64,000 nt of DNA from a virus (Duplodnaviria > Heunggongvirae > Uroviricota > Caudoviricetes): positions 103,062 to 167,061 of IMG/VR virus record IMGVR_UViG_3300021431_000077; one strand, given 5' to 3'. Numbering within the stretch: position 1 is the first letter of the stretch; each line of letters begins with the position of its first letter. The position numbers and the translations under genes were made by a program. The notes below the pieces were generated by a model. That model searched no databases, was not told the DNA's origin, and was given only the letters and a program-made list of their open reading frames with translations. Shown here piece after piece: positions 8,090 to 43,552 of this stretch.

Positions 8090-8560
8090 AGGGTTGAAAA
8101 AGAAGGGGTGAAACCTAACCCGTGTTCGTCTGCACAGGTTATCAACAGGTTGCCTACAGGGTTTCGACGGCGGGTTAACACCAGGTTCACACGGGGTTTT
8201 CACCACAGGTTTTCAACCAGATTTCACCCTCCTTTTCAACCCCATTTCAACCATTTATCAACAGTGATTTCAGGCGCCCGATATTTTCAACTTGGGTTAT
8301 GACGATTCGATTGAAACTGGGTTTGAACCCAGGTTAATAACCCAAGTTGAGAATAATGGATGTAAAAAGATGGTTACAACCCTGTTGATAGATTGTTGAG
8401 AAGTTGGGTGAAAACAGATGGTTGAAAGTATGTTGAAAACCTGTTGAAAACCCATGATAAAGATATCAACAAGATATCAACAGGTGTGAATAGATTGTTG
8501 AGAGGGTGGTATGGCAGCCAGCGTGCGGAGCTGGTCAGGGGTGATAACCCAGGTTGAAAA
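8090..8560. repeat. Left-boundary quasi-palindrome of degenerate CAAC/GTTG words with an inverted pair of site cores
   Basis: CAACTTGGGTTAT (8288-8300) and ATAACCCAAGTTG (8337-8349) are inverted around CTGGGTT-TG-AACCCAG (about 8318-8333); TTCAAC words lie to the left and GTTGA words to the right. Confidence 0.85.
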
Positions 8561-8644
8561 TCTATGTATGTAAAAGAAAGTAAACAGAAAGGGGGACGCC
8601 TTTGCAGGCGCCCCCTTGATGATATGAATGAATACGAAAGGTGT

Positions 8645-9547
8645 TTAAGCCACGAGTTCTTGGAACAGGGACTTGGAGATTTCCTTTGGGACAGATAGTC
8701 TATCAACCAAATCGAAGGAATCCTTGTCGGGCCGCAGGATAGCGAACTCACCCGATTCGTGGAAATAGAGCCAAGCATCCAAGTTCATGAAGAACAGGGT
8801 GCAGTAGATTTGGTTTTTGACCTTGTTGGGGTCATTGGAGACATTGAGTATTTCCATATCCTTTGCCACAGGCTCTTCATCATCCACTAGGATAACGTTC
8901 GGGGTGAAGAAGATTTTATGCCCTAGTACAGAACGGGTTTCGCCCATGGTTATGAACCTATTGGCGGGGCCAATGATTGTGTCATTGGCGTTACGTACAA
9001 GCAGGTTCCAGATATGGTTCATATTGGTGGACGAAACCACGTCTGTACACGGCTTGTAAAGGCCATGGGAGACAACCCATTTGGCGGTCATGAGAGATTT
9101 CTTAGTGAGGTTCTCTCGTGAGAGGATATGGGCGGTCAGGTTCAGGATGTCGAGCATATTGGCTACACCTACAGCGAGGTAATCGGACTTGGCTTCCGTG
9201 AGTTTCTCGGAGATATAGGCGGAATCCATATTAACCGACGAGGGGACAGTTATGTGGCCCTTATGGAACTCAACTGAATCCCGTTTGATTTCCTGGAAGA
9301 TGTTGATGTTGTCGTGGAAGCCAGTGGAAACTATGTTGGCAACCTTGTATGCATCAATGATGTTCGGGGTCTTTTGGGAAAGGAGTTGATGAACAATGCA
9401 ACATACTGCTTGCAAGTTTTGGGTAGCAGAGCGAAGGCCGCTGAGCGTGAGTTGCTCAGAGATGTAATCCATAGCATCGTTCCTGTCTTCGGCGAGCATT
9501 TTCTTGACAAGGGATTCGGGATTTGGTTTCGGTTTCTGTGTGAACAT
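8645..9547 (-). CDS. hypothetical protein (last cassette gene)
   Basis: 300 aa ORF, GGAGG RBS, terminator at about 8590-8615. Confidence 0.85.
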   Translation of the reverse strand: MFTQKPKPNPESLVKKMLAEDRNDAMDYISEQLTLSGLRSATQNLQAVCCIVHQLLSQKTPNIIDAYKVANIVSTGFHDNINIFQEIKRDSVEFHKGHITVPSSVNMDSAYISEKLTEAKSDYLAVGVANMLDILNLTAHILSRENLTKKSLMTAKWVVSHGLYKPCTDVVSSTNMNHIWNLLVRNANDTIIGPANRFITMGETRSVLGHKIFFTPNVILVDDEEPVAKDMEILNVSNDPNKVKNQIYCTLFFMNLDAWLYFHESGEFAILRPDKDSFDLVDRLSVPKEISKSLFQELVA

Positions 9548-9655
9548 TGGATTGCCTCCTGATGTTACAAATATACATAATTAAATATGGGAGCGGAGAA
9601 AAATCATAAATTTTTTTTGAGAAAAATCAAAAATTTAAAAAATAAAAATTAAAAA

Positions 9656-10000
9656 TTATTTCAGTTTGGAAACGAGGTTGACAGCAAACTTTTCGATATC
9701 CATGAATCGTCTGTTGATAGCTTCGGCTGTCCGCATGGTGATGGTAGCGGAGGTAGTGAACCTGATGTGACCCTTGGGCTTGGAGAGGTAGGCAACGGTT
9801 CGCAACGAGGTGTCGATGACGATGGCTTCACCGTTGGGTTCGAACGGTGAGAGTACAATGCGTCTGCTTCCGCCTATCTTACGGACGATGGATGAGGCCC
9901 TGTTGGCAACCTGGTCGAAGTAGGTGGTTGAGCCGTCCTGTTCCATGCGCTTTGCTGCGTCGTTGAGTTGTGCTGCGATGAATGCGGGTGTTTCGTTCAT
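9656..10000 (-). CDS. hypothetical protein
   Basis: GAGG RBS. Confidence 0.75.
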   Translation of the reverse strand: MNETPAFIAAQLNDAAKRMEQDGSTTYFDQVANRASSIVRKIGGSRRIVLSPFEPNGEAIVIDTSLRTVAYLSKPKGHIRFTTSATITMRTAEAINRRFMDIEKFAVNLVSKLK

Positions 10001-10231
10001 GATGATATCCTCGTTGTTTCAAACCTTGGTTTCGAGCGGCTGGTGCCAACCCGTGATATGAATATAGTTAATTAAAAGCAAGATGGGTAGGGGTTTGTTG
10101 TGTAAAGTTTTTGTTACAGAGAGGGTGAGCGAGTATAGGGTGGTATGCTGCCACCGGGAACGGAATCGTCGGGGTGATAACCCAAGTTGGAAATCTTTTT
10201 GGAAAAAGGGTAAAAGCCTGTAACAGGCTTA

Positions 10232-10777
10232 TTACTTCTTGGACTGGAAGTGGAGATATTCGGATTTTGAGAACTGGTTTTCCCAACGGATAGAGTAATC
10301 CTTAGGGAGAGTCTTTTCCAGGATTGAAACGACTTCCTTTCTTTTGTAGTATGAGATATCGACCATGCTGATATCGACGGCTTTTCCAACCCTGTGTTTG
10401 GACCATTGGTCATGTCTGTCGAAGGAATCATGTGCGGAGATGATAGTGGGAGTGAAGTCGGGTCCGAACTGGCTTTTGAACACCTTGATAACGTATACTA
10501 GGCCAGCTTCTAGTTGAGGAGTCAGCTCCATGACTACATAACCTTTTTGGAATGTGTTTTCCATTATGTAGTCATGGTTGGAGCCAGTTTGGACGGGGAC
10601 ATCGTAATCATCATTGGATTGAGCAGTCTTGTACTCCTCTGTAGGCTGATAGTATTCAGCGGTGTTATGTTTCTCAGGTACATAGGGGTCGAACACGAGT
10701 TTGACACCTACGATGAGCATGATGATAATCATGATGAGACCGAGAATGATTTTGATTAGGTTTACAAGGCATCCCAT
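10232..10777 (-). CDS. membrane-anchored M15-family (DD-peptidase/Hedgehog fold) Zn metallopeptidase
   Basis: N-terminal TM helix; SKHRVGKAVDI matches SxHxxGxAxD, plus a downstream HFQ third ligand. Confidence 0.7.
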   Translation of the reverse strand: MGCLVNLIKIILGLIMIIIMLIVGVKLVFDPYVPEKHNTAEYYQPTEEYKTAQSNDDYDVPVQTGSNHDYIMENTFQKGYVVMELTPQLEAGLVYVIKVFKSQFGPDFTPTIISAHDSFDRHDQWSKHRVGKAVDISMVDISYYKRKEVVSILEKTLPKDYSIRWENQFSKSEYLHFQSKK

Positions 10778-10795
10778 AATGGGCCTCCAATTGGA

Positions 10796-11131
10796 TTAGA
10801 TTTCTCGGGTGGCAGCTACTTTCCAAGCGAGGAGAGTCGGGTAGAGCTTTTTGGCCTCTTCCTTTGCTTTGGTATCGTAGAGCTTGAAGTTAGCGATGAC
10901 GAATTCGGCTTCATTGAAGTCATCCTGGGGCAACATATTGAGGGGCTTGGCCGAGCAGGTCTTGAAGGTTCCAGGGACTCGGGAAGCTTTGCAGCATTTG
11001 GCGAACCAGATGTTGTCCTTGTTGTGGCGGGATTCGTTGGTCCCTTTACAGAATGTGTTGAACTGGCTGACAGCTTGGCCGTAGGACGGTGCAAGAATGA
11101 TTCCGTTGACGACGATGATGCGCTTATCCAT
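10796..11131 (-). CDS. hypothetical protein
   Basis: GGAGG RBS. Confidence 0.75.
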   Translation of the reverse strand: MDKRIIVVNGIILAPSYGQAVSQFNTFCKGTNESRHNKDNIWFAKCCKASRVPGTFKTCSAKPLNMLPQDDFNEAEFVIANFKLYDTKAKEEAKKLYPTLLAWKVAATREI

Positions 11132-11133
11132 GA

Positions 11134-11478
11134 TTAGTCCTCCTTGAGGTTGATGTTGAGGTAGGTTGTGAACTGGGTGTTATTAACCCTGAATATGGTA
11201 GAGTGGAACGAGGAAGGAATCAGGTTATTGCATTTGAGGTCAGCAACGATGTATTCGACCATGTTGCTAATCAAATCTGTTTCGAGTGGCTGATTCTTCT
11301 TTCCCTTTCTTTTGAAAGTGATGCCGAGGGTAAGGATGGCATGGTTGACCTTGTGCTTGACCTTACCGACGGAGTAGATGTGTTCGGCGAATTTGGTTTG
11401 CAAATCGTTTCTGACGAGGAAGCAAACCTGGTCGAAATCGATAGGTTCAATCCCTGTTTTAGCCTTGTTAGTAATCAT
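11134..11478 (-). CDS. hypothetical protein
   Basis: GAGG RBS. Confidence 0.75.
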   Translation of the reverse strand: MITNKAKTGIEPIDFDQVCFLVRNDLQTKFAEHIYSVGKVKHKVNHAILTLGITFKRKGKKNQPLETDLISNMVEYIVADLKCNNLIPSSFHSTIFRVNNTQFTTYLNINLKED

Positions 11479-11497
11479 GTTAGTAGCCTCGATTGGA

Positions 11498-11749
11498 TTA
11501 GTTTAACTTGTAGACATGGGTAGCGGAGTAGGTATCGTCGCCAGTGGGTTCGCCGAACGGCATGACACGAACCTGGGTGAAGCCGTTGTTTTCCATAACG
11601 TATTTGAGGTAGAGGTGGTCATGCTTCCAGTCGCCCCAATGTACATCGACATTGACTTCGCCCTTGGGGTTGATACCATATTCGTAGTGCAGGTCATTTT
11701 CCTTGAAGACCTTAGCAACTTTCAGTTCAATTTCAATTGGGTTTGCCAT
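11498..11749 (-). CDS. hypothetical protein
   Basis: Start MANPIE with GAGGA RBS. Confidence 0.75.
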   Translation of the reverse strand: MANPIEIELKVAKVFKENDLHYEYGINPKGEVNVDVHWGDWKHDHLYLKYVMENNGFTQVRVMPFGEPTGDDTYSATHVYKLN

Positions 11750-11837
11750 TTGATTCCTCAAAAATTATTAAATTTTTTGTTTACAGAAAAAATATAGAAA
11801 ATTAAAAATAAAAGTGGCTCAGAAAAAATGTAAAAAT

Positions 11838-12212
11838 TTATTTCCAGTCCCTGATTTTGTAGTAGTTGATTGTGTTTTCGAAAGCCTCGGTGATACGGTG
11901 GTTATCTACCTTGTCGAACCCAGGCTGGCCGAGATGGTAGAGGCACAGGGCGCTGTCCCAGAGGCCATCAACGATGAGTGGGCCATAGGTCTCCCAGCAC
12001 TTGCGGTAGACAGCCAGTTCATCACCTCGTCCTGCCCAACGGCCTTCGTCGTTCAGCCATGCTTCCACCTGTGCCTTAACGTCGTCCTGCTCGAAGGTCT
12101 CAATCAGGATGCTGCCACTGCGTCTGGCAAGCTCGTCGATGAGGTCCTCGGTTGGAACCTCTCTGAGCTTGTACTGCTTGCTAGGGTCAGGGATGTAAGT
12201 ATGTCTTTTCAC
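11838..12212 (-). CDS. hypothetical protein
   Basis: GTG start, GAGG RBS, below promoter at about 12247-12275. Confidence 0.75.
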   Translation of the reverse strand: MKRHTYIPDPSKQYKLREVPTEDLIDELARRSGSILIETFEQDDVKAQVEAWLNDEGRWAGRGDELAVYRKCWETYGPLIVDGLWDSALCLYHLGQPGFDKVDNHRITEAFENTINYYKIRDWK

Positions 12213-12454
12213 TGGGTTGCCTCACTCGGTTGATTCTATGCATTTAATATACCTAATTAAAAAGTCGGTGTCAAGCGGAGTTGGCAACTTTTTGTGTAAA
12301 AAATAGTTTACAACCCTCTGATGGGGACGGCGGGCAGAAGGTCAGGGGGTGATAACCCAAGTTGGATATTTTTTGGAGAAAAAAGAAAAGGCCCCCGATG
12401 GGCTAGAAACAACGGAGTCGCCATGGCAACAAACGCCCATCGGGGGAGGAGGAA

Positions 12455-12949
12455 TTACTTATAGAGTTCGGGGAACAGTTCGAGTTGTCCGTAGTTGTTC
12501 CTCTTGTGGAGAGGGGTTTTCTTCACGGGTTTCTTCTTGGTTTTCTTCTTGGTTTTGCCAGCGAGGGTTTTCAACCTGTTGACAACTTCCTTGCGAGTAA
12601 CGCCTTTGAGGGAAGCGTTGATGGCATCGCGGTCTTCGACGGACGTTCTGCGGACTGTGACGCGAACCTTGGTGGTTTCAGTCGGTTGGTAGGTGACTGT
12701 TGAAATCTTGGGGTTCGGACGGCGGCCACGGCTGAGGTAGTATTCGGCGAACGTGGTTTTGCCGTACATGGTGTCCACTTCTACATCACGGGTCTTGATG
12801 TTGTAGCCATCTTCACGCAGGTTGAAGATGCAGGCCGAAAGGCGGGTGATGTGGAGTTTTGTGAACGCATCAAGGGAAGTGATTTTTCCGTACTTCTTGA
12901 TGTATTGCAGGACTCTGTTCTTTTGGTTGTTTCTGTGTTCGGCACTCAT
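12455..12949 (-). CDS. winged helix-turn-helix protein (HTH_39-like) with basic C-terminal tail
   Basis: QKNRVLQYIKKYGKITSLDAFTKLHITRLSACIFNLREDGYNI pattern typical of phage HTH_39. Confidence 0.8.
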   Translation of the reverse strand: MSAEHRNNQKNRVLQYIKKYGKITSLDAFTKLHITRLSACIFNLREDGYNIKTRDVEVDTMYGKTTFAEYYLSRGRRPNPKISTVTYQPTETTKVRVTVRRTSVEDRDAINASLKGVTRKEVVNRLKTLAGKTKKKTKKKPVKKTPLHKRNNYGQLELFPELYK

Positions 12950-12951
12950 GG

Positions 12952-13557
12952 TTATTTCCCCTTTTTGTCTAATTCGATTTGTTTAAGAGTTGCTTCGATG
13001 GCCTGTATTACCTTGAAGTCGCAGATAGCGAACCCGAAAGCATTTTCGTCGCGGATTTTGAATGAGCCGTCGAGATAGACTTCGATAGGGGCGACCCCTT
13101 CTTCGTCATCATTTTTGGTTCGCCAGCAGTCGATGACCCAGCACTTGTCGTAAGTGTCGAAGTAATCGTGGCGGACTTCGGAGTAGAACGGATTTCCCTC
13201 GCCTTTTGATTCCTTGTACCACTTGGACATAAGGTCAACACAATCGTTGATGAAGCGCCTTGTAGGGCAGTTTGGAGTTTCCTTGAAGTTGAGGGCTTCA
13301 AGTTTGAGCAGGGTTTCCAAATGTTTCTTGATAAACTTTTTGTCAATGCCGTGTTCAACGAGGTGTGCAACGAGGTCTTTTTTCGTGATGACCACCGTGT
13401 TGTACTTGGCTACGATAGAGGCATAGACAATATCGTCGGAGACTTTAGAGATAAAGTCCGTGATGGTCTCTTTCGAGACCTGGGGGTTTGTTTTGAGGAA
13501 AGGGTTGACTTTCGTTTTCAGAAAATCAAAAAATGTTTTTGTAACTGTGATTGCCAT
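12952..13557 (-). CDS. hypothetical protein
   Basis: 201 aa, GGAG RBS, own promoter. Confidence 0.8.
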   Translation of the reverse strand: MAITVTKTFFDFLKTKVNPFLKTNPQVSKETITDFISKVSDDIVYASIVAKYNTVVITKKDLVAHLVEHGIDKKFIKKHLETLLKLEALNFKETPNCPTRRFINDCVDLMSKWYKESKGEGNPFYSEVRHDYFDTYDKCWVIDCWRTKNDDEEGVAPIEVYLDGSFKIRDENAFGFAICDFKVIQAIEATLKQIELDKKGK

Positions 13558-13636
13558 GATTGACTCCGTTTGTTGTTTCTGATGATAATATAGATAATTA
13601 AAGTCTTTTTGTCAAGAGAAAAAATGAAAAATATTT

Positions 13637-13945
13637 TTACATAATCAGTTCAATGATGTCGTAGCGGACATCGTAATCGCCGTGGTCAACGATAAGGGAG
13701 TCACAGGATTTCATCTTCTTGATGATTTCCTTGTCATTTTTGATGCTGTGACTGGAATCTGGGAGATGAATGTCGTATCCATCCTCAGTGCTTCCGTCAT
13801 CGTTCAACTCACAGTTATCCATTAAGGAATCGATGATGCTTTGCACCGCTGCATCGTGGCTGAAATACATATAGTTGACCCCTGCTTTCTCAATGGGGCT
13901 TCCGCTGCAGTGTTCAACAACGATAAATTGTCTTTTGTTTTTCAT
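13637..13945 (-). CDS. hypothetical acidic protein
   Basis: AGGAG RBS. Confidence 0.75.
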   Translation of the reverse strand: MKNKRQFIVVEHCSGSPIEKAGVNYMYFSHDAAVQSIIDSLMDNCELNDDGSTEDGYDIHLPDSSHSIKNDKEIIKKMKSCDSLIVDHGDYDVRYDIIELIM

Positions 13946-13960
13946 ACTGCACTCCTTTTA

Positions 13961-14113
13961 TTAAAATTCCTCGTCTTCGCCATCGAGGGTGAAACTGTCG
14001 ATGAAACTGGTGATGTTAGCGACAGCACGAGCCATGCGGCTATCCTCAGTTTCCTTTGCCTTTGCTTTGGCCTTGGTGGTGGAAGATTTCGTTTTCTTCA
14101 AGGTTTTCTTCAT
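13961..14113 (-). CDS. small hypothetical protein (basic N-terminus, acidic C-terminus)
   Basis: MKKTLKKTKSS..., GGAGG RBS. Confidence 0.6.
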   Translation of the reverse strand: MKKTLKKTKSSTTKAKAKAKETEDSRMARAVANITSFIDSFTLDGEDEEF

Positions 14114-14123
14114 GGTTGCCTCC

Positions 14124-14537
14124 TTAAATGTCGAACGAGTTGATGTGGAAAACATCTTTGCGTTCATTGACGAGAACATTGCAAAGATTAACATATTCGG
14201 GAACAGTCACCATGAGCGTGATGATAGAGCCGTCAGCAAGCCCCTGTTCAAGCATGGTGAGGAACTTCTTGCTACGCCCCATGCACTTGATGACTTTGCT
14301 ATCCCACGAGTTGTTATCGTCGGTGTTGTGACGGAACTCAATCGTGATGCTGTCGGGGCCGATACCTTTCTGCGGGTTAGCGTACGAGAACGACTGCTCG
14401 ATTTCAGTCATGATTTCGCTAGCGGCTTCCTTGCGGTCTTTTGTCGGGTTCCAAAACGAGGGTGCAATCAGGTCATCATCGCAGTGGTCTGTGGTGTAAC
14501 AAACGGCCTGATAATATGTAGTCTTTTTCTTTGCCAT
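14124..14537 (-). CDS. hypothetical protein
   Basis: True start MAKKKTT after the AAGGAG RBS (the track start lies upstream of the promoter). Confidence 0.8.
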   Translation of the reverse strand: MAKKKTTYYQAVCYTTDHCDDDLIAPSFWNPTKDRKEAASEIMTEIEQSFSYANPQKGIGPDSITIEFRHNTDDNNSWDSKVIKCMGRSKKFLTMLEQGLADGSIITLMVTVPEYVNLCNVLVNERKDVFHINSFDI

Positions 14538-14564
14538 AGTGGTCTCCTTTGTTTCTATGTTATA

Positions 14565-14631
14565 AATATACCTAATTAAATATGGGTTGTCAATACCTTT
14601 TCCAACTTTTTTGTGTAAAGATTTCGTTACA
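14565..14631 (-). promoter_or_regulatory. Representative cassette promoter (TTGACA-N17-TATATT) with upstream TGTAAA-N6-GTTACA palindrome; about 40 similar promoters between 9.5 and 43.4 kb
   Basis: aatata 14565-14570, tgtcaa 14588-14593, tgtaaa-gatttc-gttaca 14614-14631. The spacer core TTTAATTA(G/T/A/C) recurs, e.g. near 12.25, 13.6, 15.8, 16.5, 17.4, 18.2, 19.3, 20.2, 22.2, 23.3, 23.9, 24.9, 25.6, 27.7, 28.8, 29.9, 31.0, 31.7, 32.6, 33.3, 34.1, 34.5, 35.4, 36.3, 36.9, 37.8, 38.4, 39.0, 39.6, 40.2, 40.8, 41.1, 41.7 and 42.3 kb. Confidence 0.9.
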
Positions 14632-14757
14632 ACCTCTGGGCGGAAACCGTGGGGACAGCTGCAGTCGAGACTAGGGTGATAACCCAAGTTGGAAATCCAG
14701 ATGTGAACGAGAAAAAGCCCCACCCATTCGGGTGAGGCTCGGAGACAAGGGAAACTG

Positions 14758-15006
14758 TTAAACGGTAAATTCTTCTATGGTGAGGTTCACTTCTTCATCC
14801 TCGGCGGTGCGGAAACTATTGCCATACATACAGCCGTCGATAGTAAAGCCGTCCGCATCATTGGGGAATGTCTCTGTCAATATGTCGAAGATGCACTTTG
14901 CTGCCTTTTGACGGGTAGTGCACACTTCTGTGATAATCTCATGTGCGTCTTCGTGAGGGTGAAAGTGAAAGCCAGAAACAACAAAAATCTTTTTCTTTTC
15001 AGCCAT
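14758..15006 (-). CDS. hypothetical protein
   Basis: GGAGG RBS, ends at terminator. Confidence 0.75.
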   Translation of the reverse strand: MAEKKKIFVVSGFHFHPHEDAHEIITEVCTTRQKAAKCIFDILTETFPNDADGFTIDGCMYGNSFRTAEDEEVNLTIEEFTV

Positions 15007-15015
15007 GTTTGCCTC

Positions 15016-15759
15016 CTAATCGTTAAGGAATCCGAGGTCATCATAGAACTCTTGGTCGAGAGAGGGTTCGGGAGCGAGTTTGAACCCGTTTGCTTCCATG
15101 ATTTCATCAGGGATATGGGCAATAGAACGAGGCGGGAAATTAGCCACGATGTAGTCAGCTTCCGTTTCCTTGCCATCAGGGTCAGGTTCATAGTCATAAC
15201 CTGTTCCATACTGTTCGAGGTCAGCCCTAATTGCTTCGGGGTCTTTTGCAAACCAATCGAGGGCGGCCTGCTTAATCTTCGGCTTAAACGCATTAAAGAG
15301 TTGCTTGTAGAACTTGTTGCTTCCCTCTTTTTCCGTGATTTCCTCTGTGTCAATGTCCACGAGGAAATCATTGAAGTAATCATATTCGTGTTGCCCATCA
15401 GCATCCTTGATGGAGATACGGATAAGATAGGTTTTAATCTTCTTGTTGCTAACTACTTCGCCATCGAGGAGGATTGCAAGTTCCTGTGCATCCTCATCAG
15501 TCGGGAGTGCGATTTCAAGGTGGAAGATTGTGGTAAAACAATCGTCGCAACATTCGTCTTCACGCTTAATCTTGATTTCGTATTTGCGACTATTCTTCGG
15601 TTCAGTTTCGTCGAACTCTTCGCACTCAGAATCCCAAGTGTAGAACTTGGAAAGAAATTCCTTGACTTCATTTCGTGCTTCATCAAAGTCGAAAAGGTCA
15701 TTGTGTTCTGTAAAGATGCCGTTGATACCGATGTATTCTTCGTCTATGTGAAAGCTCAT
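15016..15759 (-). CDS. hypothetical acidic protein
   Basis: Start MSFHIDEE after AAGGAG. Confidence 0.8.
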   Translation of the reverse strand: MSFHIDEEYIGINGIFTEHNDLFDFDEARNEVKEFLSKFYTWDSECEEFDETEPKNSRKYEIKIKREDECCDDCFTTIFHLEIALPTDEDAQELAILLDGEVVSNKKIKTYLIRISIKDADGQHEYDYFNDFLVDIDTEEITEKEGSNKFYKQLFNAFKPKIKQAALDWFAKDPEAIRADLEQYGTGYDYEPDPDGKETEADYIVANFPPRSIAHIPDEIMEANGFKLAPEPSLDQEFYDDLGFLND

Positions 15760-15835
15760 GCTTGTCTCCTTTGTTTCTATGCTATAAATATACCTAATTA
15801 AATCGGTATTGTCAAGGGATTTTTTGTAAACTTTT

Positions 15836-35392: not shown

Positions 35393-35610
35393 ATTTACTT
35401 CTCCGTTGTGTTGTTTTCGTTGTATTATAAATATACCTAATTAAATTCAGTTTGTCAAGCCCTAAACAGAAAAAACTGGAAAGCTCGTGATTCTCCTGGT
35501 TCCAGCGGCAGAGGGGTGATAACCCAAGTTGAAAATATGGTGGCACACGAGAAGAAACCCCCACCCATTCGGGCAGGGGCATTCAACGAGGTAGGAGGTA
35601 AGCTTGTTCG

Positions 35611-35874
35611 TCAGCTCGGTTCGTCAGCGAGGAACCATTCACCGCAGAAGTCGCCCTCTTCGTTGAGCTTGTCAACAAGATTGTCTGCATCCTCACGGCT
35701 TAAATCCACCTTGAAGTTGATTTGTGCAGGGGAACCATCCACCCACTGTTCATTGGCGGCAATTCCTACAACATGTTGTTCAAGGTGCTTTCTAATCATT
35801 ATGCAAAGATAATTGGCAAAGCCATTCGCATTATCCTTGATTCCATTCTTGACGTTCAAAAAGATTTCTGTCAT
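35611..35874 (-). CDS. hypothetical protein
   Basis: Cassette gene 2. Confidence 0.75.
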   Translation of the reverse strand: MTEIFLNVKNGIKDNANGFANYLCIMIRKHLEQHVVGIAANEQWVDGSPAQINFKVDLSREDADNLVDKLNEEGDFCGEWFLADEPS

Positions 35875-35884
35875 ACGATACCCC

Positions 35885-36298
35885 TTATAGTTTCTCTTTC
35901 TTGGTTACAAAAGTAGCAATAGGTTCAGACTCTTTCTTGCTTCCTTTTACATAGATAAAACACTTGCCAACCGTATATCTCTTGGTGTAATCCTCGCACC
36001 ATTTCAATGCTTCGGCAAGTGAATCAAAGCTATCGGTTTCGTGAAACTCACCGTTTTCATATCTGATACAGAACTCGCATAGGAAAGCCAATCCGTCAAG
36101 TTGGATGAGCCGACCACCGACAAGAAGAAACTCCTTGCCACAATGCCCATTCGCAGGGTCGCACAAGTAGTCTAGTTTCTCTATGGGGTAATCCTTGCCT
36201 AGTGTTTTCTTGGTAAGTTCCCATTGGCTTTCATCAAAGGTAAGTTGTGCGGTCTTCGTTTTGAAAGGGGCAATTACTGTTATTCGTCCAAAGTTCAT
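35885..36298 (-). CDS. hypothetical protein
   Basis: Start MNFGRIT after GGAGG. Confidence 0.75.
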   Translation of the reverse strand: MNFGRITVIAPFKTKTAQLTFDESQWELTKKTLGKDYPIEKLDYLCDPANGHCGKEFLLVGGRLIQLDGLAFLCEFCIRYENGEFHETDSFDSLAEALKWCEDYTKRYTVGKCFIYVKGSKKESEPIATFVTKKEKL

Positions 36299-36544
36299 TT
36301 TAACCTCCGCTGTTCTATATATAATATAGCTAATTAAATTCAGTTTGTCAATAGCCAACATAAAAAAATTTACTGGAAATGAGATGACCCGACGAGATGA
36401 CCCCTCGACGCTGCTCCAGTGTAGGGGTGATAACCCAAGTTGAATATCGGGGAGGGAATCGAAGAAAACCCTCGTCGTTCGACGAGGGCTGTAATGCGGA
36501 AAGTGTAGGGGTGTTTGAGTCTTGGTTAATACCGCATTACCTTT

Positions 36545-36877
36545 CTAAACTCCGTGTTCCTTCGTAAGATAGAACATATCCCACGAACAATTACGCATAG
36601 CCTTCATCTGCTTGCGAGTTGCGGTGTCCTTCCAAAGCACTTTGTGTTCATTCCCGAACATAATGTAGAGAACGGTCTGGGCGAGTATTCGTGAGACCAC
36701 AATATCTGTGAAGTCTCCGTTAAGAAGTTCGGGGTGCTTTTCAAGGCACTCCTTAATCGCACCCCTTACCTTATTCATGTGGATAGAATCCTTGACGAAA
36801 TCAGTCGCATTATCCACAATGGACTTACGATTGAACTCTGTTAAAGACTTCTTGCTAATCTTGATTGCTTTTGCCAT
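36545..36877 (-). CDS. hypothetical protein
   Basis: Single-gene cassette. Confidence 0.8.
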   Translation of the reverse strand: MAKAIKISKKSLTEFNRKSIVDNATDFVKDSIHMNKVRGAIKECLEKHPELLNGDFTDIVVSRILAQTVLYIMFGNEHKVLWKDTATRKQMKAMRNCSWDMFYLTKEHGV

Positions 36878-37130
36878 AGTGATACCTCGTTTGTTTCTAT
36901 ATAATATAGTTAATTAAAATAGGTTTGTCAAGGGGGTGTATCAATTTTTTGTTGGAAAAATCTACTGCCAACCCTGTCGTCAAGACCCCTGTTGGGACTG
37001 CTGGTCCCCAGTGGAGGGGTGATAACCCAAGTTGAAAACCCAGCAGGAACAAAAAAGAACACCGCCGTTCGGCGGTGGGAGCAGTTAGGTGAAAGTTTAG
37101 GGGTGTTAAGTTTGTTTCCTAACCGCTCTT

Positions 37131-37748
37131 TTAAACGAATTTGTTAAAGAATGCTTTGACATTTTCAATTCCCGCCTTAACGGATTCAAGATACTTGTCA
37201 AACAATACTTCACTAATCATATACAAATGACCAATTTTATCCCAATGCCTTTTATGCTTTCCCTTGAACCCGCAGGTTTCCACGTCAGAACTTCTGAACA
37301 AGATAATATGGCTGTTGCTTACCTTACAGAATGTAAGCCATATATATCCCTCGCAGGAATAATAACCACCCTTGACATTACGGAAAGCAGGAATGACAAT
37401 CGGATTTTTGCCATAGCAAAAAGTATTCAATTCCTTATCCCACTTTGCCTTTGAACGCAGGAACAAGTCCTTATGAACAATAGCATAGGTAATATAACTC
37501 TTGCCGTTTCCACTTTCCCATAATGCCTTATACTCAACATTGACTATTTGATAGTCATTGCCAAATGATTCCCGAATAGTCTTGTCAAGTGCAAGCAATT
37601 CATTTGCGGTGAACTCCGTTTCAATCAGTTCATCACCCTTTTTTTGCTCAAAGGACATAGGGATTTGCCTTGCCTGTGCGTGTTCAATAGAGTAGTGAGA
37701 CTTAATGTAGGATTCTCTTTGGCGAGAGTATTTAATGATATGTGCCAT
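37131..37748 (-). CDS. hypothetical protein
   Basis: Single-gene cassette. Confidence 0.8.
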   Translation of the reverse strand: MAHIIKYSRQRESYIKSHYSIEHAQARQIPMSFEQKKGDELIETEFTANELLALDKTIRESFGNDYQIVNVEYKALWESGNGKSYITYAIVHKDLFLRSKAKWDKELNTFCYGKNPIVIPAFRNVKGGYYSCEGYIWLTFCKVSNSHIILFRSSDVETCGFKGKHKRHWDKIGHLYMISEVLFDKYLESVKAGIENVKAFFNKFV

Positions 37749-37973
37749 GTTATTACCTCGTTGTTTGTATCTATAATATAGATAATTAAATCTGTTTTGT
37801 CAAGTATCTAATTAAATTATTTTCATAATCCGCACGGATTATTCCCCTGAACCCTGACGACCGACGGAAGCTCCAGTCAGGACTAGGGTGATAACCCAAG
37901 TTGAATATCGGGTGGAAACAAAGTTTAACCCCCTCTTGCGAGGGGGCTTTGTCGTCAGGAGTAAAGCGACGGA

Positions 37974-38327
37974 TTACGAATTGAAATCTGCAAGATAGCA
38001 GGAAATTACTTTCGCCATTTTGCGAGCAGGGAGAACTGGAATGTCCGAAGCCACCCCCTTGATTGTCAAGGTGGCATATTCCTTGCCATGGTTGTCAATG
38101 CCGTAGGTAATGCTTGCATCGCTGTGAGACCATTTGGTATCAGTCTTGTGCGAGTTGTTTGGCTTGAAAATGGTCTCAACGCACTTGGGAATTACATCGC
38201 TCTTCTGTTTCAAGCGAGTTCCATACTTGAACTCAAATACGAGGTAGCAAAGAACTTCCCTCATGTGGTTGGAGAAATCCTTGAACTTCTTTTGCGTGGT
38301 GGTGTCCATTGTCTTGTATCTAGGCAT
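37974..38327 (-). CDS. hypothetical protein
   Basis: Single-gene cassette. Confidence 0.8.
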   Translation of the reverse strand: MPRYKTMDTTTQKKFKDFSNHMREVLCYLVFEFKYGTRLKQKSDVIPKCVETIFKPNNSHKTDTKWSHSDASITYGIDNHGKEYATLTIKGVASDIPVLPARKMAKVISCYLADFNS

Positions 38328-38567
38328 TGTGTTGCTCCGTTGTTAGGTTGTTTGTTGTTTCTATGTTCCTAATATACATAATTAAATTTAATTTGTCAAG
38401 TATTTTTTGTAACATTTTATCAACATTCTATACCCGAACCCCGAGCGTCAGCGTCAGAGCAGCCCGCGTGCGAAGGCGGAAAGGGTGATAACCCATGTTG
38501 AATATCGGGGCAGAGCGTAAAAAATGCCCCCGTAAAGGGGGCGGCACTTCATCAGGGAGGTAAAAAC

Positions 38568-38930
38568 TTAATCCCACCAATCAGGCTTAGGGTCAGACGA
38601 TTTTTCAAGCGCTTCGCTCAACTTCATTCCGACAGGGATACTAATGTCTCGTTCAACGGCAGGGCAACCGAATTGTCTCAGTTTGGAGAGTTCAGAGAGG
38701 TCAATATCGCCATACTCGCTGAAATCTGGGTTTGCGTTGTTCACCACATAGCCGTAAGCAAGGTTTTCGTTATCCTCGTAGCCTTCAAGGATATACCACG
38801 TCAATGCGTGGGTGAAAGGGCAGAACAGACGGCAGGCGACCTTTGCTTCGCCTTTCAATCCGTCTTGCGAACCGCTAGGGTGTTTCTTCAAGAACTTCTT
38901 GACTTGTGCAGTGATAAGTTTCTGTGCCAT
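38568..38930 (-). CDS. DUF2958 family protein
   Basis: LITAQVKK...LFCPFTHALTWYILEG...YGYV...EYGDIDLSEL...VERD matches the DUF2958 pattern. Confidence 0.8.
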   Translation of the reverse strand: MAQKLITAQVKKFLKKHPSGSQDGLKGEAKVACRLFCPFTHALTWYILEGYEDNENLAYGYVVNNANPDFSEYGDIDLSELSKLRQFGCPAVERDISIPVGMKLSEALEKSSDPKPDWWD

Positions 38931-39133
38931 TTTATTACCTCGTTGTTTGTTTATGTATATAATATAGTTAATTAAATTAGGCTTGTCAATAGGGTTTCAA
39001 ACATTTTTGTGTAAACATTTCGTTACAACCCGAATGAAACCGTCGGGGACAGCTGCAGTCGAGGCTGGGGTGATAACCCAAGTTGAATATCGGGGCGACG
39101 AAAAAAGAAATCCCCTCTTGCGAGGGGCGGTGG

Positions 39134-39367
39134 TTAGTCTTCGTTAATGTAGCACTTTGAATCTTGAACGGCTCCGCAGTGAACGCATTGCTGAATGTAT
39201 TGATGCCCTATTACTCTGTCGCCTCTTGTTATAGTATAGTCCTTGACCGTTTTCCATTGGTGCCTGCATTGATTGGACATCTTCTTGATTGTAATGATGA
39301 TTGCTCCAACGATAGCGGAAACCCCACATACGCCCAATGAGACGATGAAGATTGTTAAGGGGAGCAT
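39134..39367 (-). CDS. small membrane protein with C-terminal CxxC
   Basis: TM segment then CRHQW...CVHC. Confidence 0.7.
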   Translation of the reverse strand: MLPLTIFIVSLGVCGVSAIVGAIIITIKKMSNQCRHQWKTVKDYTITRGDRVIGHQYIQQCVHCGAVQDSKCYINED

Positions 39368-39368
39368 A

Positions 39369-39560
39369 TTATACCCCCTCTGCCATAAACTTACGGAACA
39401 ATTCCATGCGATAGTCTTCCCGCTTTTGGCGTGAGATAAACCCACCCTCTACACGGAACTTGTCCACCCACCGCTCTGCACCTTCCATTACATCACCCCT
39501 TGGGTGCTTCTTTAATTCCTCAATATCTTTGGGAGTCAGTTTAACATTGATGAAAGCCAT
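39369..39560 (-). CDS. hypothetical protein
   Basis: GAGG RBS, own promoter. Confidence 0.75.
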   Translation of the reverse strand: MAFINVKLTPKDIEELKKHPRGDVMEGAERWVDKFRVEGGFISRQKREDYRMELFRKFMAEGV

Positions 39561-39761
39561 ATTATTACCTCGCTGTTTCTATATATAATATAGTTAATTA
39601 AATCTAGTTTGTCAAGCCATTTGAGAACTTTTTTGCCTGTCGTCAGACCCCTGTCGGAATCCTGGTTCGCCAGTGTAGGGGTGATAACCCAAGTTGAACG
39701 GACGACAGACGAAAAAAGAAACCCCCTCTTGCGAGGGGGCACGGAGCAGGACACAAATTTC

Positions 39762-39953
39762 TTATGCGGCTTTTTTCTTTTCCTTTTCCTTATAGCAGGC
39801 GGCACAAATCCAACCGCTTGCTATCTCTTTGTAGTAGGTCTTCTTGCCACAGCCTTGACAGCGGTGCTTCCTATCCCAAGCCTTTTGGTCAAAGTCCTTA
39901 CTGCGTTCAAACGAAGGCTCATCCACAACCTTTGGTATATCTATCCTATCCAT
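39762..39953 (-). CDS. small Zn-ribbon protein
   Basis: CQGC...CAAC. Confidence 0.65.
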   Translation of the reverse strand: MDRIDIPKVVDEPSFERSKDFDQKAWDRKHRCQGCGKKTYYKEIASGWICAACYKEKEKKKAA

Positions 39954-39963
39954 TGCTCACCCC

Positions 39964-40146
39964 CTATTCAAACGAGCCACATTCGCTCATCAAATTGGTA
40001 ATCAAGTGTGCTTGATAAGGGAAGTGATACCCACCCACCGCAACACTCTTGTCGCCAATAAAGGCACAGAGAACACCGCATTCCTTTTTCAGTTCAAGTC
40101 GGCTATCTACCTTCTTGCACTCAGCCACAAATTCGTTCAAACCCAT
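39964..40146 (-). CDS. hypothetical protein
   Basis: Cassette gene 1. Confidence 0.7.
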   Translation of the reverse strand: MGLNEFVAECKKVDSRLELKKECGVLCAFIGDKSVAVGGYHFPYQAHLITNLMSECGSFE

Positions 40147-40357
40147 TTTTACCTACCTTTTTAAGTGAGTTCTATATAATATATAGTAAATTAAATCCGT
40201 TTTGTCAAGTGGTCTAATAAAAAAATTGGCAGCAGACCATTCAGAGGAGACGGCGGGCGAGCTGGGAAAGGGTGATAACCTAAGTTGAATATCGGGCGGG
40301 GCGACAAAAAGAGGGTTGCAACCGAGTTGCAACCCTCCACAACGGAAGTAAGTAAAC

Positions 40358-40735
40358 TTATCTGATTTTAGGAATACTATTTTCCAAATCGCTAATGGAA
40401 CTATAATTGTTTGTACCACCATGACTATCCTTGATGCTAGTCGCAGTGCGGAGCAACACGCCACGCATCGGCCCACTTGCGTTCACATCAATGGTCATGC
40501 CACGGAAGTCACCATAGTTGTAATAGACAATCTGTCCATCGGCACGCTGAATGTAGCCGTAAACATAGTAGTGACCTGTCCTTTGGAGCAGAACCTTTGC
40601 ACCAATCTTCTTGCATACCCTTTTCATAAGGTTGTGGAAAGAGAGTGCTAGACTCATTCCCATAGAGCCACGGGGCATCGTAGTTCCGCTTTCGTTAAAG
40701 AAAACACCTTGCCATTTGCGTTTGAAAGTCTGCAT
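40358..40735 (-). CDS. hypothetical protein
   Basis: Single-gene cassette, GAGG RBS. Confidence 0.75.
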   Translation of the reverse strand: MQTFKRKWQGVFFNESGTTMPRGSMGMSLALSFHNLMKRVCKKIGAKVLLQRTGHYYVYGYIQRADGQIVYYNYGDFRGMTIDVNASGPMRGVLLRTATSIKDSHGGTNNYSSISDLENSIPKIR

Positions 40736-40967
40736 TGTTTTAACCTCGTCTTGATACCTTTAATATACCTAATTAAAAGCATCTTGTCAAGCCCTACCCA
40801 TCATTTTCTTTGTAAACTTTCGCTTACATATCCCGCCGACCCACCCAGCGGCAGCCCCCAGCCTCCGCCGGGCAGCCAGCAGGTAAGGGTGATAACCCAG
40901 GTTGAACATCCGCGTGTTGCCAACAGAAAGGGTCGCAACCGCTGGTCGCAACCCTGGTGAGAGCAGG

Positions 40968-41108
40968 CTACTTCGCACCTACGTGAACTAACAGACCTTC
41001 CCACAAGAAGTAGAAGACCATGAAGTAGGCTGCGAGCACTCCAAGTCCTTCGCCTATGCTTACGAGAACACCTTTATCCTCTCTCTTTTCCTTGACCTTG
41101 ATACCCAT
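40968..41108 (-). CDS. 46-aa membrane micro-protein (not in ORF track)
   Basis: MGIKVKEKREDKGVLVSIGEGLGVLAAYFMVFYFLWEGLLVHVGAK; GGAGG RBS; sole ORF of its cassette. Confidence 0.75.
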   Translation of the reverse strand: MGIKVKEKREDKGVLVSIGEGLGVLAAYFMVFYFLWEGLLVHVGAK

Positions 41109-41366
41109 TTGAAACCTCCGTTGTTGTTCTATATATAATATACACAATTAAAACTACAATGTCAATAGGTTATTAACAATTCTGTGTAAACATTCGGTTA
41201 CAAACCGCCGCCCCAACATCGTTTCCAATCCTGACGATGACCCGACTCCTGATGACCGTCGAATCTCCAGTCAGGACTAGGGTGATAACCCAAGTTGAAT
41301 ATCGGGGTGGGGTCAGGAAAAAACCCATAGGGTTATACCCTATGGGCTAGCAACCGATGACCTAGA

Positions 41367-41495
41367 CTACTTCCCCAAACACTGGAACATAGCCGTATGA
41401 CCGAACGCCAACGGAACCAAGTCCTTGAAGCAGCCTATCGCAGTCGGCTCGTATTCGCCTTTCTCGTTCTTCAAGTAGAGCATATACTTCTTCAT
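41367..41495 (-). CDS. 42-aa micro-protein
   Basis: MKKYMLYLKNEKGEYEP...; ATGA overlap. Confidence 0.65.
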   Translation of the reverse strand: MKKYMLYLKNEKGEYEPTAIGCFKDLVPLAFGHTAMFQCLGK

Positions 41496-41605
41496 TTCGC
41501 TACCGCCTTTACCAAGTAGATTAAACCGATGATTGCATAGAGGAACCAAATAGGTGGAAACAGAACACCGAGAACCACCAATACGATGAGGACTATCAGT
41601 TTCAT
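41492..41605 (-). CDS. 37-aa membrane micro-protein (not in ORF track)
   Basis: MKLIVLIVLVVLGVLFPPIWFLYAIIGLIYLVKAVAK; ATGA overlaps at both ends. Confidence 0.7.
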   Translation of the reverse strand: MKLIVLIVLVVLGVLFPPIWFLYAIIGLIYLVKAVAK

Positions 41606-41685
41606 TTCCTGCTCCCCTTGTAAATGCGTAAGCCCATCTTTATTGCAGTGAGTTTGTCTTTCGTTGTAGGTTTCTTCTGTGCCAT
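41602..41685 (-). CDS. 27-aa basic micro-peptide, KMGLxIY family copy 1
   Basis: MAQKKPTTKDKLTAIKMGLRIYKGSRK; GAGG RBS directly after promoter. Confidence 0.8.
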   Translation of the reverse strand: MAQKKPTTKDKLTAIKMGLRIYKGSRK

Positions 41686-41867
41686 ATTATACCTCGTTGT
41701 TTGTATCTATAATATAGTTAATTAAATCTCGTTTGTCAAGGGGGACAGCGAATTTTTTATCGAAAGCCGCACGCTTCCCTCTGGGACTAGGGTGATAACC
41801 CAAGTTGAATATCGGAGGGAAAACAAAAGATTGGCGGTCTCTTTCGAAACCGCCTTGATAAAGTCCG

Positions 41868-42257
41868 TTAGGAAAATGCCACTTCAATAACCTTTTCCTT
41901 GATGACAGCCAATGCGTCAGTCAGCAGGGGCATACTGAACTCGTGCCTATCCTTGTCTATGCAGGTTATCTCGTTCGTGTAGGTATTAACCCTAACCATA
42001 TACTTCAACGGCTTTCTGCGAGGGTTCGCAACTACACCGAACATCATAGTGAACGCAAAGTCGCCATTGTGTTCTGGTATAGGTTCAAACCCTCGTGCCG
42101 TCATACGATGAAGACCGAATATCTCACGGCATAAATTCTCTTGGTCATACATATCACGAATTGTATCAGCCAACTCGTTCAACTTCGCCACAACATTATC
42201 CATAATATCTATGTTAGCAACGTTAGCGATGAACTCTTTTTGCTTTCTCTGTGCCAT
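41868..42257 (-). CDS. hypothetical protein
   Basis: Single-gene cassette. Confidence 0.8.
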   Translation of the reverse strand: MAQRKQKEFIANVANIDIMDNVVAKLNELADTIRDMYDQENLCREIFGLHRMTARGFEPIPEHNGDFAFTMMFGVVANPRRKPLKYMVRVNTYTNEITCIDKDRHEFSMPLLTDALAVIKEKVIEVAFS

Positions 42258-42467
42258 AAGTTACTCCTTTGTTTCACTTAAAATATACATAATTAAATCC
42301 GTTTTGTCAAGGATTTAATCAACTTTATTTATACCTTTTACTATGGGGTGGTATCACGCCCGCAGCTCCAGTCAGGACTAGGGTGATAACCTAAGTTGAA
42401 AAACATAAAAGAAAAAATAAAAAAGGTTTAACCCTACGGGTTAAACCCTTGTTTTTATCGGAGTTAA

Positions 42468-42890
42468 TTAAAGCTTAACCTTGAAGTGGACAAGGGACTT
42501 GTAAACAACATCTACAAGCTCGTCCTGCAAAGCCTTCGCAGCAAGCCCACGTTGCTTCTCGGTGTTGCGGTTCACCTCGGCTATGGTGGCGTTGAACCCC
42601 CCGAACATCAGACAGCGATAGCCCGTAGGCACAAGCTCCACGGGAGTGACGTTGAGGTAGTAGCTGGACGGGTAACTGTGACCGTCATAGAAACTGCGAC
42701 CCGCCTTGCGGTAGCCCACGCTCAGACGGAGGGCGTTGCAATCGTCCGACCCACTGCCCGTCTCAACCTTCTGCATAGGGAACGGGATGCTAATATCCCT
42801 GCCAAACTTGACTTCAATGCCTGCACAAAGCTCCTGCACCTTCTTATACATTTCGCTTTCAGTATCTACTTCTATACCTTTGAGAATCAT
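42468..42890 (-). CDS. hypothetical protein
   Basis: Single-gene cassette with atypical upstream element. Confidence 0.8.
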   Translation of the reverse strand: MILKGIEVDTESEMYKKVQELCAGIEVKFGRDISIPFPMQKVETGSGSDDCNALRLSVGYRKAGRSFYDGHSYPSSYYLNVTPVELVPTGYRCLMFGGFNATIAEVNRNTEKQRGLAAKALQDELVDVVYKSLVHFKVKL

Positions 42891-43061
42891 TTTACAACTC
42901 CGTTGTTTTCCCTAAGGCAACATCGCCTCGGGACACCCCTTAATATAGGGTGGTATCTCGCCCCCTGTTCAAACTGTTTCAGGGTGATAACCCAGGTTGA
43001 ACATCGGCGGGAACCAATTTAAAAGGGGACCTTTACAGGTCCCCTTCGTTCAAATCGTTTG

Positions 43062-43247
43062 CTAGACCCTTTCAATCTTGTCTTCGTCAGCATGGACGCG
43101 AACCCCGCCCCAACTTCCTTCAAGTTGCCCCAAATCGTCTATGCTTTCTATCACGCCCACCCGCCCGTTATAATGCGGTTCGCCCGCCATTTCAACAATA
43201 CGGATTTTATCACCGACTTTAAAACCTTTTGTATCGTGTTTCTGCAT
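43062..43247 (-). CDS. DUF4314 family protein
   Basis: VGDKIRIVEM..EP....GVIESIDDLGQLEGSW pattern. Confidence 0.75.
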   Translation of the reverse strand: MQKHDTKGFKVGDKIRIVEMAGEPHYNGRVGVIESIDDLGQLEGSWGGVRVHADEDKIERV

Positions 43248-43254
43248 CTTGTTT

Positions 43255-43335
43255 TTACCCGTTTTTCTTATAGATGTTAAGACCCATTTTCTTAGCGGTA
43301 ATTTTCCAAATCTGTTTTGGTTGTTTCTGTGCCAT
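43255..43335 (-). CDS. 26-aa basic micro-peptide, KMGLxIY family copy 2
   Basis: MAQKQPKQIWKITAKKMGLNIYKKNG. Confidence 0.8.
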   Translation of the reverse strand: MAQKQPKQIWKITAKKMGLNIYKKNG

Positions 43336-43552
43336 AATTTTATGCCCTTTTTAGAGTTGAGTTTTTCAGTTTAAAGTGTTCCCTAAGAAACACTACATAT
43401 AATATAGATAATTAAACACGAAAGTGTATATATTGTTTAGCATTTTCTTGTAAACTTTCGTTTACAAAAGGAAGAAAACATCGTTCTGATTCCGACAGCT
43501 TCAGCACAGTTTAGGGTGATAACCCAAGTTAAAAATCGTGGCGGGCAAAAAA

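Follow-up and report, generated by a model that had tools for sequence, protein, structure and literature searches.

A polar array of small gene units in a megaphage: conserved zonation, uniform turnover and lineage-specific junction variants

Introduction

Hyperplastic genome regions of T4-type phages carry promoter-early stem-loop (PeSL) cassettes, in which a stem-loop terminator and a strong sigma70-type early promoter are combined with an AT-rich stretch, and which flank small ORFans (Arbiol et al. 2010, PMC2839356; Comeau et al. 2014, PMC4122927). Exchange has been ascribed to homologous recombination between the motifs, and indels and replacements are bounded by them (PMC2839356, PMC4122927). 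A further trait of PeSL cassettes is that circular cassette DNAs arise by recombination of adjacent motifs. The PeSL cassette is the closest known system to the locus analysed here, an array of ~38 small gene units that occupies ~37 kb of IMG/VR virus record IMGVR_UViG_3300021431_000077. The 64,000 nucleotides under study, hereafter the window, are bases 103062-167061 of this 174.8-kb viral contig (CheckV completeness 42%), and positions below are counted within the window.

As with PeSL cassettes, the junctions between array units have a sigma70-like promoter preceded by a stem-loop terminator in the same intergenic motif, they flank ORFans, and whole-unit as well as junction-bounded indels are found, although some swaps occur inside units. 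PeSL cassettes form scattered clusters, whereas the array is a contiguous, unidirectional run of ~40 junctions over 37 kb. Each junction is ~190 bp long and has an extra near-invariant 20-bp site, phased at 22-27 nt to the terminator, and often a palindromic operator. The array also differs in its conserved zones, its zone-restricted concerted evolution and an iteron field at one end. It belongs to a ~420-kb rumen and gut megaphage, known here from the array and its flanks, and no kinship with T4 is implied.

A unidirectional row of unrelated small genes with a recurring site, in which cassettes are gained, lost and permuted among relatives, also recalls an integron, and GTTG(R)A of the site resembles the attC core GTTRRRY. 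The initial annotation of this DNA proposed that units are added or homogenised at the right end and erode or fuse leftward, like the leader polarity of integrons and CRISPR arrays. The array is not an integron. A tyrosine recombinase is missing from its genomes, of which two are complete; almost all units have a promoter and terminator of their own, whereas integron cassettes are mostly promoterless and depend on a common Pc; and turnover is not concentrated at one end, in contrast to integrons, whose newest and most variable cassettes are attI-proximal. Furthermore, the site is conserved in sequence and in this probably differs from attC, an imperfect palindrome of inverse core (RYYYAAC) and core (GTTRRRY) that keeps its structure rather than its sequence, and genes are also swapped within units, away from sites. 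When attC-type arms were considered, TTTCCAAC near the -35 element was found to be complementary to GTTGGAAA in some left junctions, inconsistently, and folding is weak. The core site of a tyrosine recombinase has two inverted arms around a centre of 6-8 bp; the array site has a dyad without spacer and varies at positions 12 and 14. CRISPR arrays grow at one end and decay at the other, whereas both ends of this array are conserved and degenerate sites are absent.

A different precedent is the ribosomal DNA (rDNA) intergenic spacer with its Sal-box/TTF-I terminator sites, in which repeats of tandem gene arrays evolve in concert. The likeness lies in repeats that are more alike within a genome than orthologous repeats in relatives are, and in a conserved site of ~18 bp, repeated many times, just downstream of the transcription unit. 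It ends with the cargo: the array genes are all different, only the junctions are homogenised, and only in the dense zone.

Here we report that the polarity of the array is conserved among related genomes, that gene turnover along it is uniform, and that its junctions carry lineage-specific, zone-restricted variants. We favour, as the more probable account, that the array is the early-gene region of a ~420-kb phage, built of standardised junctions; that its polarity is an inherited zonation and not a growth record; that right-zone junctions are homogenised by local exchange; and that the site is a terminator-linked protein-binding element.

Materials and searches

The array of the window is called W; G001, G002, G003 and G005 are related viral genomes, and L numbers denote array loci. 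Relatives were IMG/VR contigs carrying the exact 18-mer (G001, 419 kb; G002, 422 kb; G003, 279 kb; and fragments), and their array pieces were oriented and joined before comparison. Orthologous proteins among these genomes are 45-98% identical. The turnover sample consisted of ~35 independent metagenome loci and three genomes (~38 related arrays). Sites were sought as GGGGTGATAACCCAAGTTG with up to 3 mismatches, and a scan of metagenome contigs returned at least 120 stretches with the site, rumen samples being in the majority. Megablast against phage records gave zero matches, and a search for relatives through the ATPase gene of the array recovered only the same three viral contigs.

Results

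A polar array of 39 sites

The search of the window found 39 site copies between 8331 and 45151, all on the plus strand, where shuffled sequence predicts 0.02; the rest of the 174.8-kb contig has no further copies. The genes lie on the minus strand. The main features are as follows.

8332-45151, plus strand: whole array, 39 copies of GGGTGATAACCYAWGTTGRA in a single orientation, the core being invariant in 395 unique junctions from relatives (partly ascertainment, see below)
Site starts: 8332, 8539, 10172, 12347, 14674, 16574, 18324, 20262, 21172, 22266, 23364, 23961, 25021, 25719, 26874, 27767, 28898, 29998, 31054, 31854, 32701, 33413, 34160, 34623, 35514, 36425, 37017, 37886, 38483, 39068, 39679, 40270, 40887, 41280, 41790, 42381, 42982, 43514, 45134
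8539-20279, minus strand: left zone, six double units of 1.6-2.3 kb, each with two promoters, one terminator, one site and 2-5 genes; mostly GAAAT tails
20262-32718, minus strand: middle zone, 13 single-promoter units of 0.6-1.15 kb; mixed tails
32701-43531, minus strand: right zone, 17 dense units, mostly 0.5-0.9 kb with one small gene; AATATC tail in 10/19
8645-9547, minus strand: leftmost array gene, 300 aa, of no known family; left anchor kept in G001, G002, G005 and several metagenome loci
43764-45050, minus strand: AAA-type ATPase gene, 428 aa, between the last two sites; right anchor kept in every relative

The polarity described in the initial annotation is real and significant. Site spacing falls with position (Spearman rho -0.69, p 2e-6), from 1633, 2175, 2327, 1900, 1750 and 1938 on the left, through 463-1155, to 592, 869, 597, 585, 611, 591, 617, 393, 510, 591, 601 and 532. 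This change is a step as well as a gradient: the six units from 8539 to 20262 hold exactly two promoters each and 3.1 genes on average, and units right of 20262 hold one promoter or none and 1.2-1.6 genes. The bases that follow GTTG in the site also change, as had been claimed. Of the 13 copies between 10172 and 26874, 9 have GAAAT, which no later copy has (Fisher left versus right, p 0.0012); AATATC is carried by 12 copies, the first at 25719 and the last at 41790 (p 0.0057). A correlation of junction sequence with position, a test set beforehand, is present in W, G001 and G002 (Mantel p 0.0005); in W, junctions closer in rank are more alike over 31 nt of prefix, site and tail (Mantel r 0.31), and the promoter and 5' leader carry an independent position signal (Mantel r 0.37, p 0.0005). 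The cargo genes are mutually unrelated, with one paralogous pair among ~66, so that similarity is confined to the junctions.

Polarity is ancestral and turnover is uniform

Each related genome has one unidirectional array, with 40-46 sites over 38-40 kb. The gradient from long left to short right units recurs in G001, G002 and G003 (spacing rho -0.79, -0.81 and -0.65), which, with the polarity shared by all relatives, means that it predates their divergence. Every genome and fragment has its genes in collinear order between the first one (8645) and the ATPase gene (43764), and conserved genes anchor both ends.

If cassettes were added at the right, as at an integron attI site or a CRISPR leader, and then aged, lost their sites and fused leftward, variable cassettes should lie at the right and conserved ones at the left. 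Some features do look that way: the right-end units are the smallest and densest and have the most homogeneous junctions, one left junction is a derived fusion, and the strong codon bias of the left cargo could mean longer residence. Recent differences between near-identical strains are seen only in mid-right fragments (~5/40 genes, against 0/13 on the left), a contrast that is not significant. Across the whole sample, though, turnover is equal along the array. By thirds of the array from left to right, 0.53, 0.61 and 0.43 of the gene adjacencies are broken (rho -0.05, p 0.69), and the number of other genomes with a homologue does not follow position either (rho -0.15, 0.00 and -0.10, with W, G001 and G002 as reference). 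The most syntenic run of the array is at the far right, in the dozen cassettes of genes 36545 to 43764.

Decaying sites are missing as well: among the 39 copies with up to 3 mismatches the left ones are closer to the consensus than the right ones, and a search at 4 mismatches adds zero in the array orientation. The tyrosine recombinase family PF00589 was absent from G000-G003, two of them complete, in a search whose control was positive in 14/14 genomes, and the sole serine recombinase among the four genomes searched lies in G003, far from the array. Nor does the right zone look foreign, its codon usage being at the genome average. Equal turnover in relatives had been named in advance as the outcome that speaks against growth and erosion, and by that yardstick the model fails; we regard directional growth as very improbable.

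W at 26935-29872 and the G001 array at 24221-27200 hold the same six genes in three units, arranged as (A,B)(C,D)(E,F) and (A,D)(C,E)(B,F), respectively. Genes have thus been exchanged inside units, at boundaries without a site.

Right-zone junctions carry lineage-specific variants

One part of the earlier proposal, homogenisation at the right end, is borne out both by lineage-specific variants and by junction distances. Comparison of orthologous junctions gives the following right-zone forms.

W: A/G prefix, CCCAAGTTG, AATATC; AATATC in 10/19 right and 2/20 left junctions
G001 and G003: T prefix, AACATC; in G001, T prefix in 11/20 right and 0/21 left, AACATC in 7/20 right and 0/21 left
G002: CCTATGTTG; CCTATG in 14/24 right and 0/22 left

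Each of these variants occurs 0 or 1 times in the other genomes; orthologous junctions bear different variants in different genomes, and non-orthologous neighbours share one. Expressed as differences per 31 positions, right-zone junctions at other positions of the same genome differ by 6.82 and orthologues across genomes by 7.12, with a baseline of 8.01 (genome effect p 0.0005). Orthologous junctions of the left and middle zones differ by 4.9-5.1, against 6.8-6.9 for paralogous junctions of the same genome. Evolution within each lineage is therefore concerted in the dense right zone and vertical in the sparse left zone.

Three indels separate W from the 98%-identical strain L068. They are bounded by a duplicated 62-bp site-plus-terminator segment, by a 5' leader and by a point just after a terminator, as recombination anywhere in the junction would predict and a crossover fixed in the 18-mer would not; they thus lend support to exchange between neighbouring junctions.

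Alternatively, the zones may be regulatory or temporal classes, with different factors reading the tail and the double-unit layout, or with these features setting different expression strengths, and with selection keeping each zone uniform as it co-evolves with its reader. The boundary between zones does lie at the same syntenic place, near the orthologues of gene 33493, in W, G001 and G002, and operator presence, the -35 flank (A/C TTGACA), the type of Shine-Dalgarno sequence and the codon bias of the cargo all change along the array. Two sigma70-family proteins in the complete genomes also make a temporal cascade plausible. A constant zone signal across lineages is nonetheless lacking, in that the zones of G002 differ in the core (CCTATG) and not in the tail. 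Moreover, the tail does not follow operator presence, a weaker genome effect is seen in the left zone too, and the reader protein is putative. We accord functional zonation a minor, though real, share of the probability.

Left double units are mostly ancestral

Long left units had been described as containing second, internal promoters, and all six are present (9571, 11792, 13588, 15788, 17362 and 19312). The full TTGACA-17-TATATT is found at the last four, and 9571 and 11792 retain only the -10 element and spacer, with a weak or absent -35. At 15788, 17362 and 19312 TGTAAA follows, without site or terminator, as claimed.

9571-9598, minus strand: weak internal promoter between genes 8645-9547 and 9656-10000; -10 and spacer motif, no TTGACA; motif present here in all relatives
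13587-13615, minus strand: internal promoter, TTGACA-17-TATATT, no upstream site or terminator; promoter at the same place in G001, G002 and G005
15787-15815, minus strand: internal promoter, TGTAAAC half-operator, no site or terminator
17361-17389, minus strand: internal promoter of gene 16656-17336; orthologous promoter, then site, in G002, G005, L080 and L102
19311-19339, minus strand: internal promoter, near-complete operator, no site or terminator

The interpretation of these units as fusions holds for at least one junction. A site follows the promoter of gene 16656 in G002, G005 and three metagenome loci, including L080 and L102, and not in W, so the W junction is a derived fusion. It does not hold for most of the zone: in G001, G002 and G005 the internal promoters of the first three double units are retained, so these units are old, not recent fusions. 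Fusion occurs but does not account for the left zone, and no eroded site relics above chance were found at the internal promoters. G001 lacks both the promoter at 15788 and its gene (15016-15759), which fits gain or loss of a promoter-plus-gene module. Internal and site-adjacent promoters alternate strictly between 13588 and 20153, the former with CTTGACA and the latter with ATTGACA; of the two, CTTGACA is more frequent in the right zone.

Junction anatomy and the 20-bp site

In the order of transcription, a junction of ~190 bp consists of the stop codon, a GC-rich hairpin with a T run, a spacer of ~25 nt, CAACTTGGGTTATCACCC, and 40-60 nt of variable GC-rich sequence. Further downstream come, often, a TGTAAAC...GTTTACA inverted repeat, then an AT-rich stretch, TTGACA-17-TATATT with a conserved TTTAATTA inside the promoter spacer, and a short leader with a strong Shine-Dalgarno sequence and ATG.

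24913-25090, minus strand: example junction; hairpin and T run at about 25064-25087, 25-nt spacer, site 25021-25038, GC-rich variable segment, TGTAAAC..GATACA operator-like repeat, TTGACA-17-TATATT at 24913-24941

The array contains 37 of the 42 TTGACA-17-TATATT matches in the window, and a consensus scan of 26-45.5 kb alone gave 20 on the minus strand (11 of 12). A minus-strand GC-rich hairpin with a T run adjoins 33/39 sites. The distance from the site to the hairpin base is 22-27 nt (sd 2.7; 131 junctions), and that to the -35 element is loose (sd 11.8); sites are also present without promoters. Positions 12 and 14 are the only ones at which the core GGGTGATAACCYAWGTTGRA varies among 395 unique junctions of all sources, an invariance that is partly ascertainment because the relatives' loci were fetched with the site as probe. 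Within the site, GGGTGA/TAACCC forms a dyad that has a single mismatch and lacks a spacer, and AAGTTGRA has no inverted partner.

Invariance, partial dyad symmetry and fixed phasing to the terminator lead us to regard the site as most likely a protein-binding DNA element that would act with the terminator as a roadblock or insulator. By the measure of roadblock experiments, an RNA polymerase halted by a protein bound at the site would have its active centre in the T run. A promoter for another polymerase and a recombination site are alternative roles. T7-type RNA polymerase (PF00940) was not found, but the control search matched nowhere, so its absence is not proven. Between 7 and 47 kb, Rfam returned no match at E <=0.1, and there are no tRNA-like genes. 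A coding role for the site was considered and set aside: all three minus-strand frames are open, but junctions differ in length by amounts that break the frame, and the site was judged non-coding by inspection.

Some arrays have a mini-array of sites alone. Located between the orthologues of genes 42468 and 43062, it comprises five or six sites 93-115 bp apart in G002 (array 41966-42393, L033), L114 and L115; related GC-rich segments separate the sites, and the intervals lack genes, promoters and terminators. Another palindrome, GGGTTTAAACCC, is similar to the site's dyad half and occurs at 22207, 23917-23923 and 28840, in the variable segment of some junctions, ~50 nt off the site.

An iteron field at the left end and a codon-usage gradient

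Ahead of the first array gene lies a non-coding field of short tandem repeats.

8080-8540, no strand assigned: iteron field, non-coding, ~450 bp; 6-8 TTTCAAC, then 7-9 GTTGAAA at a period of 11-12 bp, then 2 copies of AGATATCAACA
8288-8305, minus strand: within the iteron field, the one near-copy of the site in reverse orientation, with 4 mismatches

In sequence, the iteron is identical to the site's 3' half. G001, G002 and G005 have this arrangement ahead of their first site, and the tandem pattern is essentially unique in the two complete genomes. Cumulative GC skew has a local minimum at 7997. A promoter-like motif of the array type (TTTAATTATGTATAT), kept in G001 and G002, lies at 8045-8081 on the plus strand and points rightward into the field, opposite to the array genes. 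The field may be an origin or other unique cis site, a 'head' for the array; no causal link to the polarity is made.

The initial annotation had offered, as an alternative, that site density is tuned to distance from a genome end. A version of this idea would take the iteron field as a replication origin or other unique cis site, with composition, unit size and junction type reflecting distance from it. Besides the uniqueness, conservation and period of the field, its match to half of the site, the skew minimum and the rightward motif, a third gradient agrees with it: the coding-strand GC skew at third codon positions (GC3 skew) of the cargo rises from -0.37 at 8.5-21 kb to -0.09 at 32-43.6 kb (contig median -0.08), correlating with position within the array (rho 0.77, p 2e-9) and doing so in G001 and G002 as well. 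The signal is, however, a preference for C over T at fourfold sites. Fourfold sites are 41-48% C in the gene sets at -3000 to 21000 and 45000-52000 (window coordinates), against 24-31% elsewhere in the contig; the C excess is independent of gene strand and includes plus-strand genes left of the array, and left-zone cargo is strongly biased to C-ending codons. Recurrence of the excess at 45-52 kb, beyond the array, means that it is not monotonic with distance and weakens replication skew as its source; we read the gradient as the codon usage of particular gene sets rather than a replication bias. By these values it is the left zone that is unusual, and the right zone resembles the rest of the genome. 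Neither an initiator nor a ParB-type protein was found, and a search for the ParB/KorB-type loader family PF02195 was negative. An effect of distance from an origin thus appears unlikely.

Cargo genes, assemblies and host

Named cargo is scarce, the bulk of it having no Pfam or PHROG function.

12455-12949, minus strand: winged-helix protein (HTH_39), 78-94% identical in relatives
27852-28349 and 29567-29872: SpoVG-domain genes, the sole paralogous pair of the array
Other named cargo: GP88 (20328), DUF932 (25812), DUF1281_C (30064), DUF2958 (38568) and DUF4314 (43062)

The winged-helix protein is a candidate for the reader of the operator or the site; structure and family searches with it and with the small genes beside the iteron field gave nothing informative.

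The 'direct terminal repeats' of G001 (107 bp) and G002 (110 bp), which underlie the call of completeness, are the junction repeat inside the array (L031/L032 and L033/L034). The join of the ends is collinear with G003 and W, so circular closure looks right, and junction repeats could mimic terminal repeats in other assemblies.

The array was also seen in two metagenome-assembled genomes (MAGs). One, from sheep reticulum and labelled Bacteroidaceae (L168, L172, L174, L177 and L182; JAFXNA0100000xx), has it on two contigs of 101 and 317 kb that together equal the phage size; the other, from human gut, is labelled Alistipes (L179 and L181; CAAGBL010000026.1). These two bins hint at Bacteroidales as host.

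Discussion

Conserved polarity, uniform turnover and zone-restricted variants can be brought together if the array is an inherited arrangement of standardised junctions in which only the dense end exchanges sequence locally. The left zone, with its multi-gene, two-promoter units and codon-biased cargo, would have junctions that evolve like ordinary orthologous DNA. The right zone would consist of single small ORFan cassettes every 0.5-0.6 kb, whose close-packed and similar junctions may swap sequence from one to the next, through gene conversion over short range or through unequal homologous recombination. Such exchange would be more frequent where junction repeats lie 0.5-0.6 kb apart, and each lineage could thereby fix its own variant over many non-orthologous junctions, giving rise to position-dependent tails.

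Several points weigh against this account. Some variants are inherited by position, for example CCATG before gene 38568 in ten sources, so homogenisation is partial. Gene conversion is a presumed cause; a co-evolving protein that reads the site could likewise, through selection, bring a single variant to many junctions. Folding of the GC-rich segment is weak (mean z about -0.9 on both strands), with a few junctions folding strongly. Early timing, promoter activity and host are all inferred, and placement in Bacteroidales sits oddly with TTGACA/TATAAT promoters and strong Shine-Dalgarno sequences, which are not the norm there and which point to a sigma70/SD-using host.

A more speculative extension, to which we attach a low probability, is that the phage protein docking at the site also binds the iteron field. 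The site might then be a roadblock that makes ~40 strong tandem units fully independent, and perhaps a polar barrier to forks or to read-through from the iteron field. On this view the array would parallel, in a phage, the terminator and fork-barrier design of rDNA, its dense right zone evolving in concert. We know of no virus for which such a combination of terminator-phased docking site, iteron field and concerted right zone has been described.

What the array adds to the PeSL system is the invariant terminator-phased site, the operators, the single unidirectional layout, the conserved zones and the iteron field. Its conserved zonation and local concerted evolution remove the tempting analogy with integrons and CRISPR arrays. 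They also separate two questions, one concerning the protein that reads the invariant site and the other the terminator-phased site as an insulator, of which the reader of the site is the more valuable lead. The standardised junction, with its terminator, site, operator, consensus promoter and Shine-Dalgarno sequence, could serve as a source of natural insulated expression parts. For the phage itself, an array of putative early genes without known function makes up about a tenth of a megaphage genome and is common in rumen metagenomes, and it exemplifies regulatory junctions that become homogenised as the cargo between them diverges.

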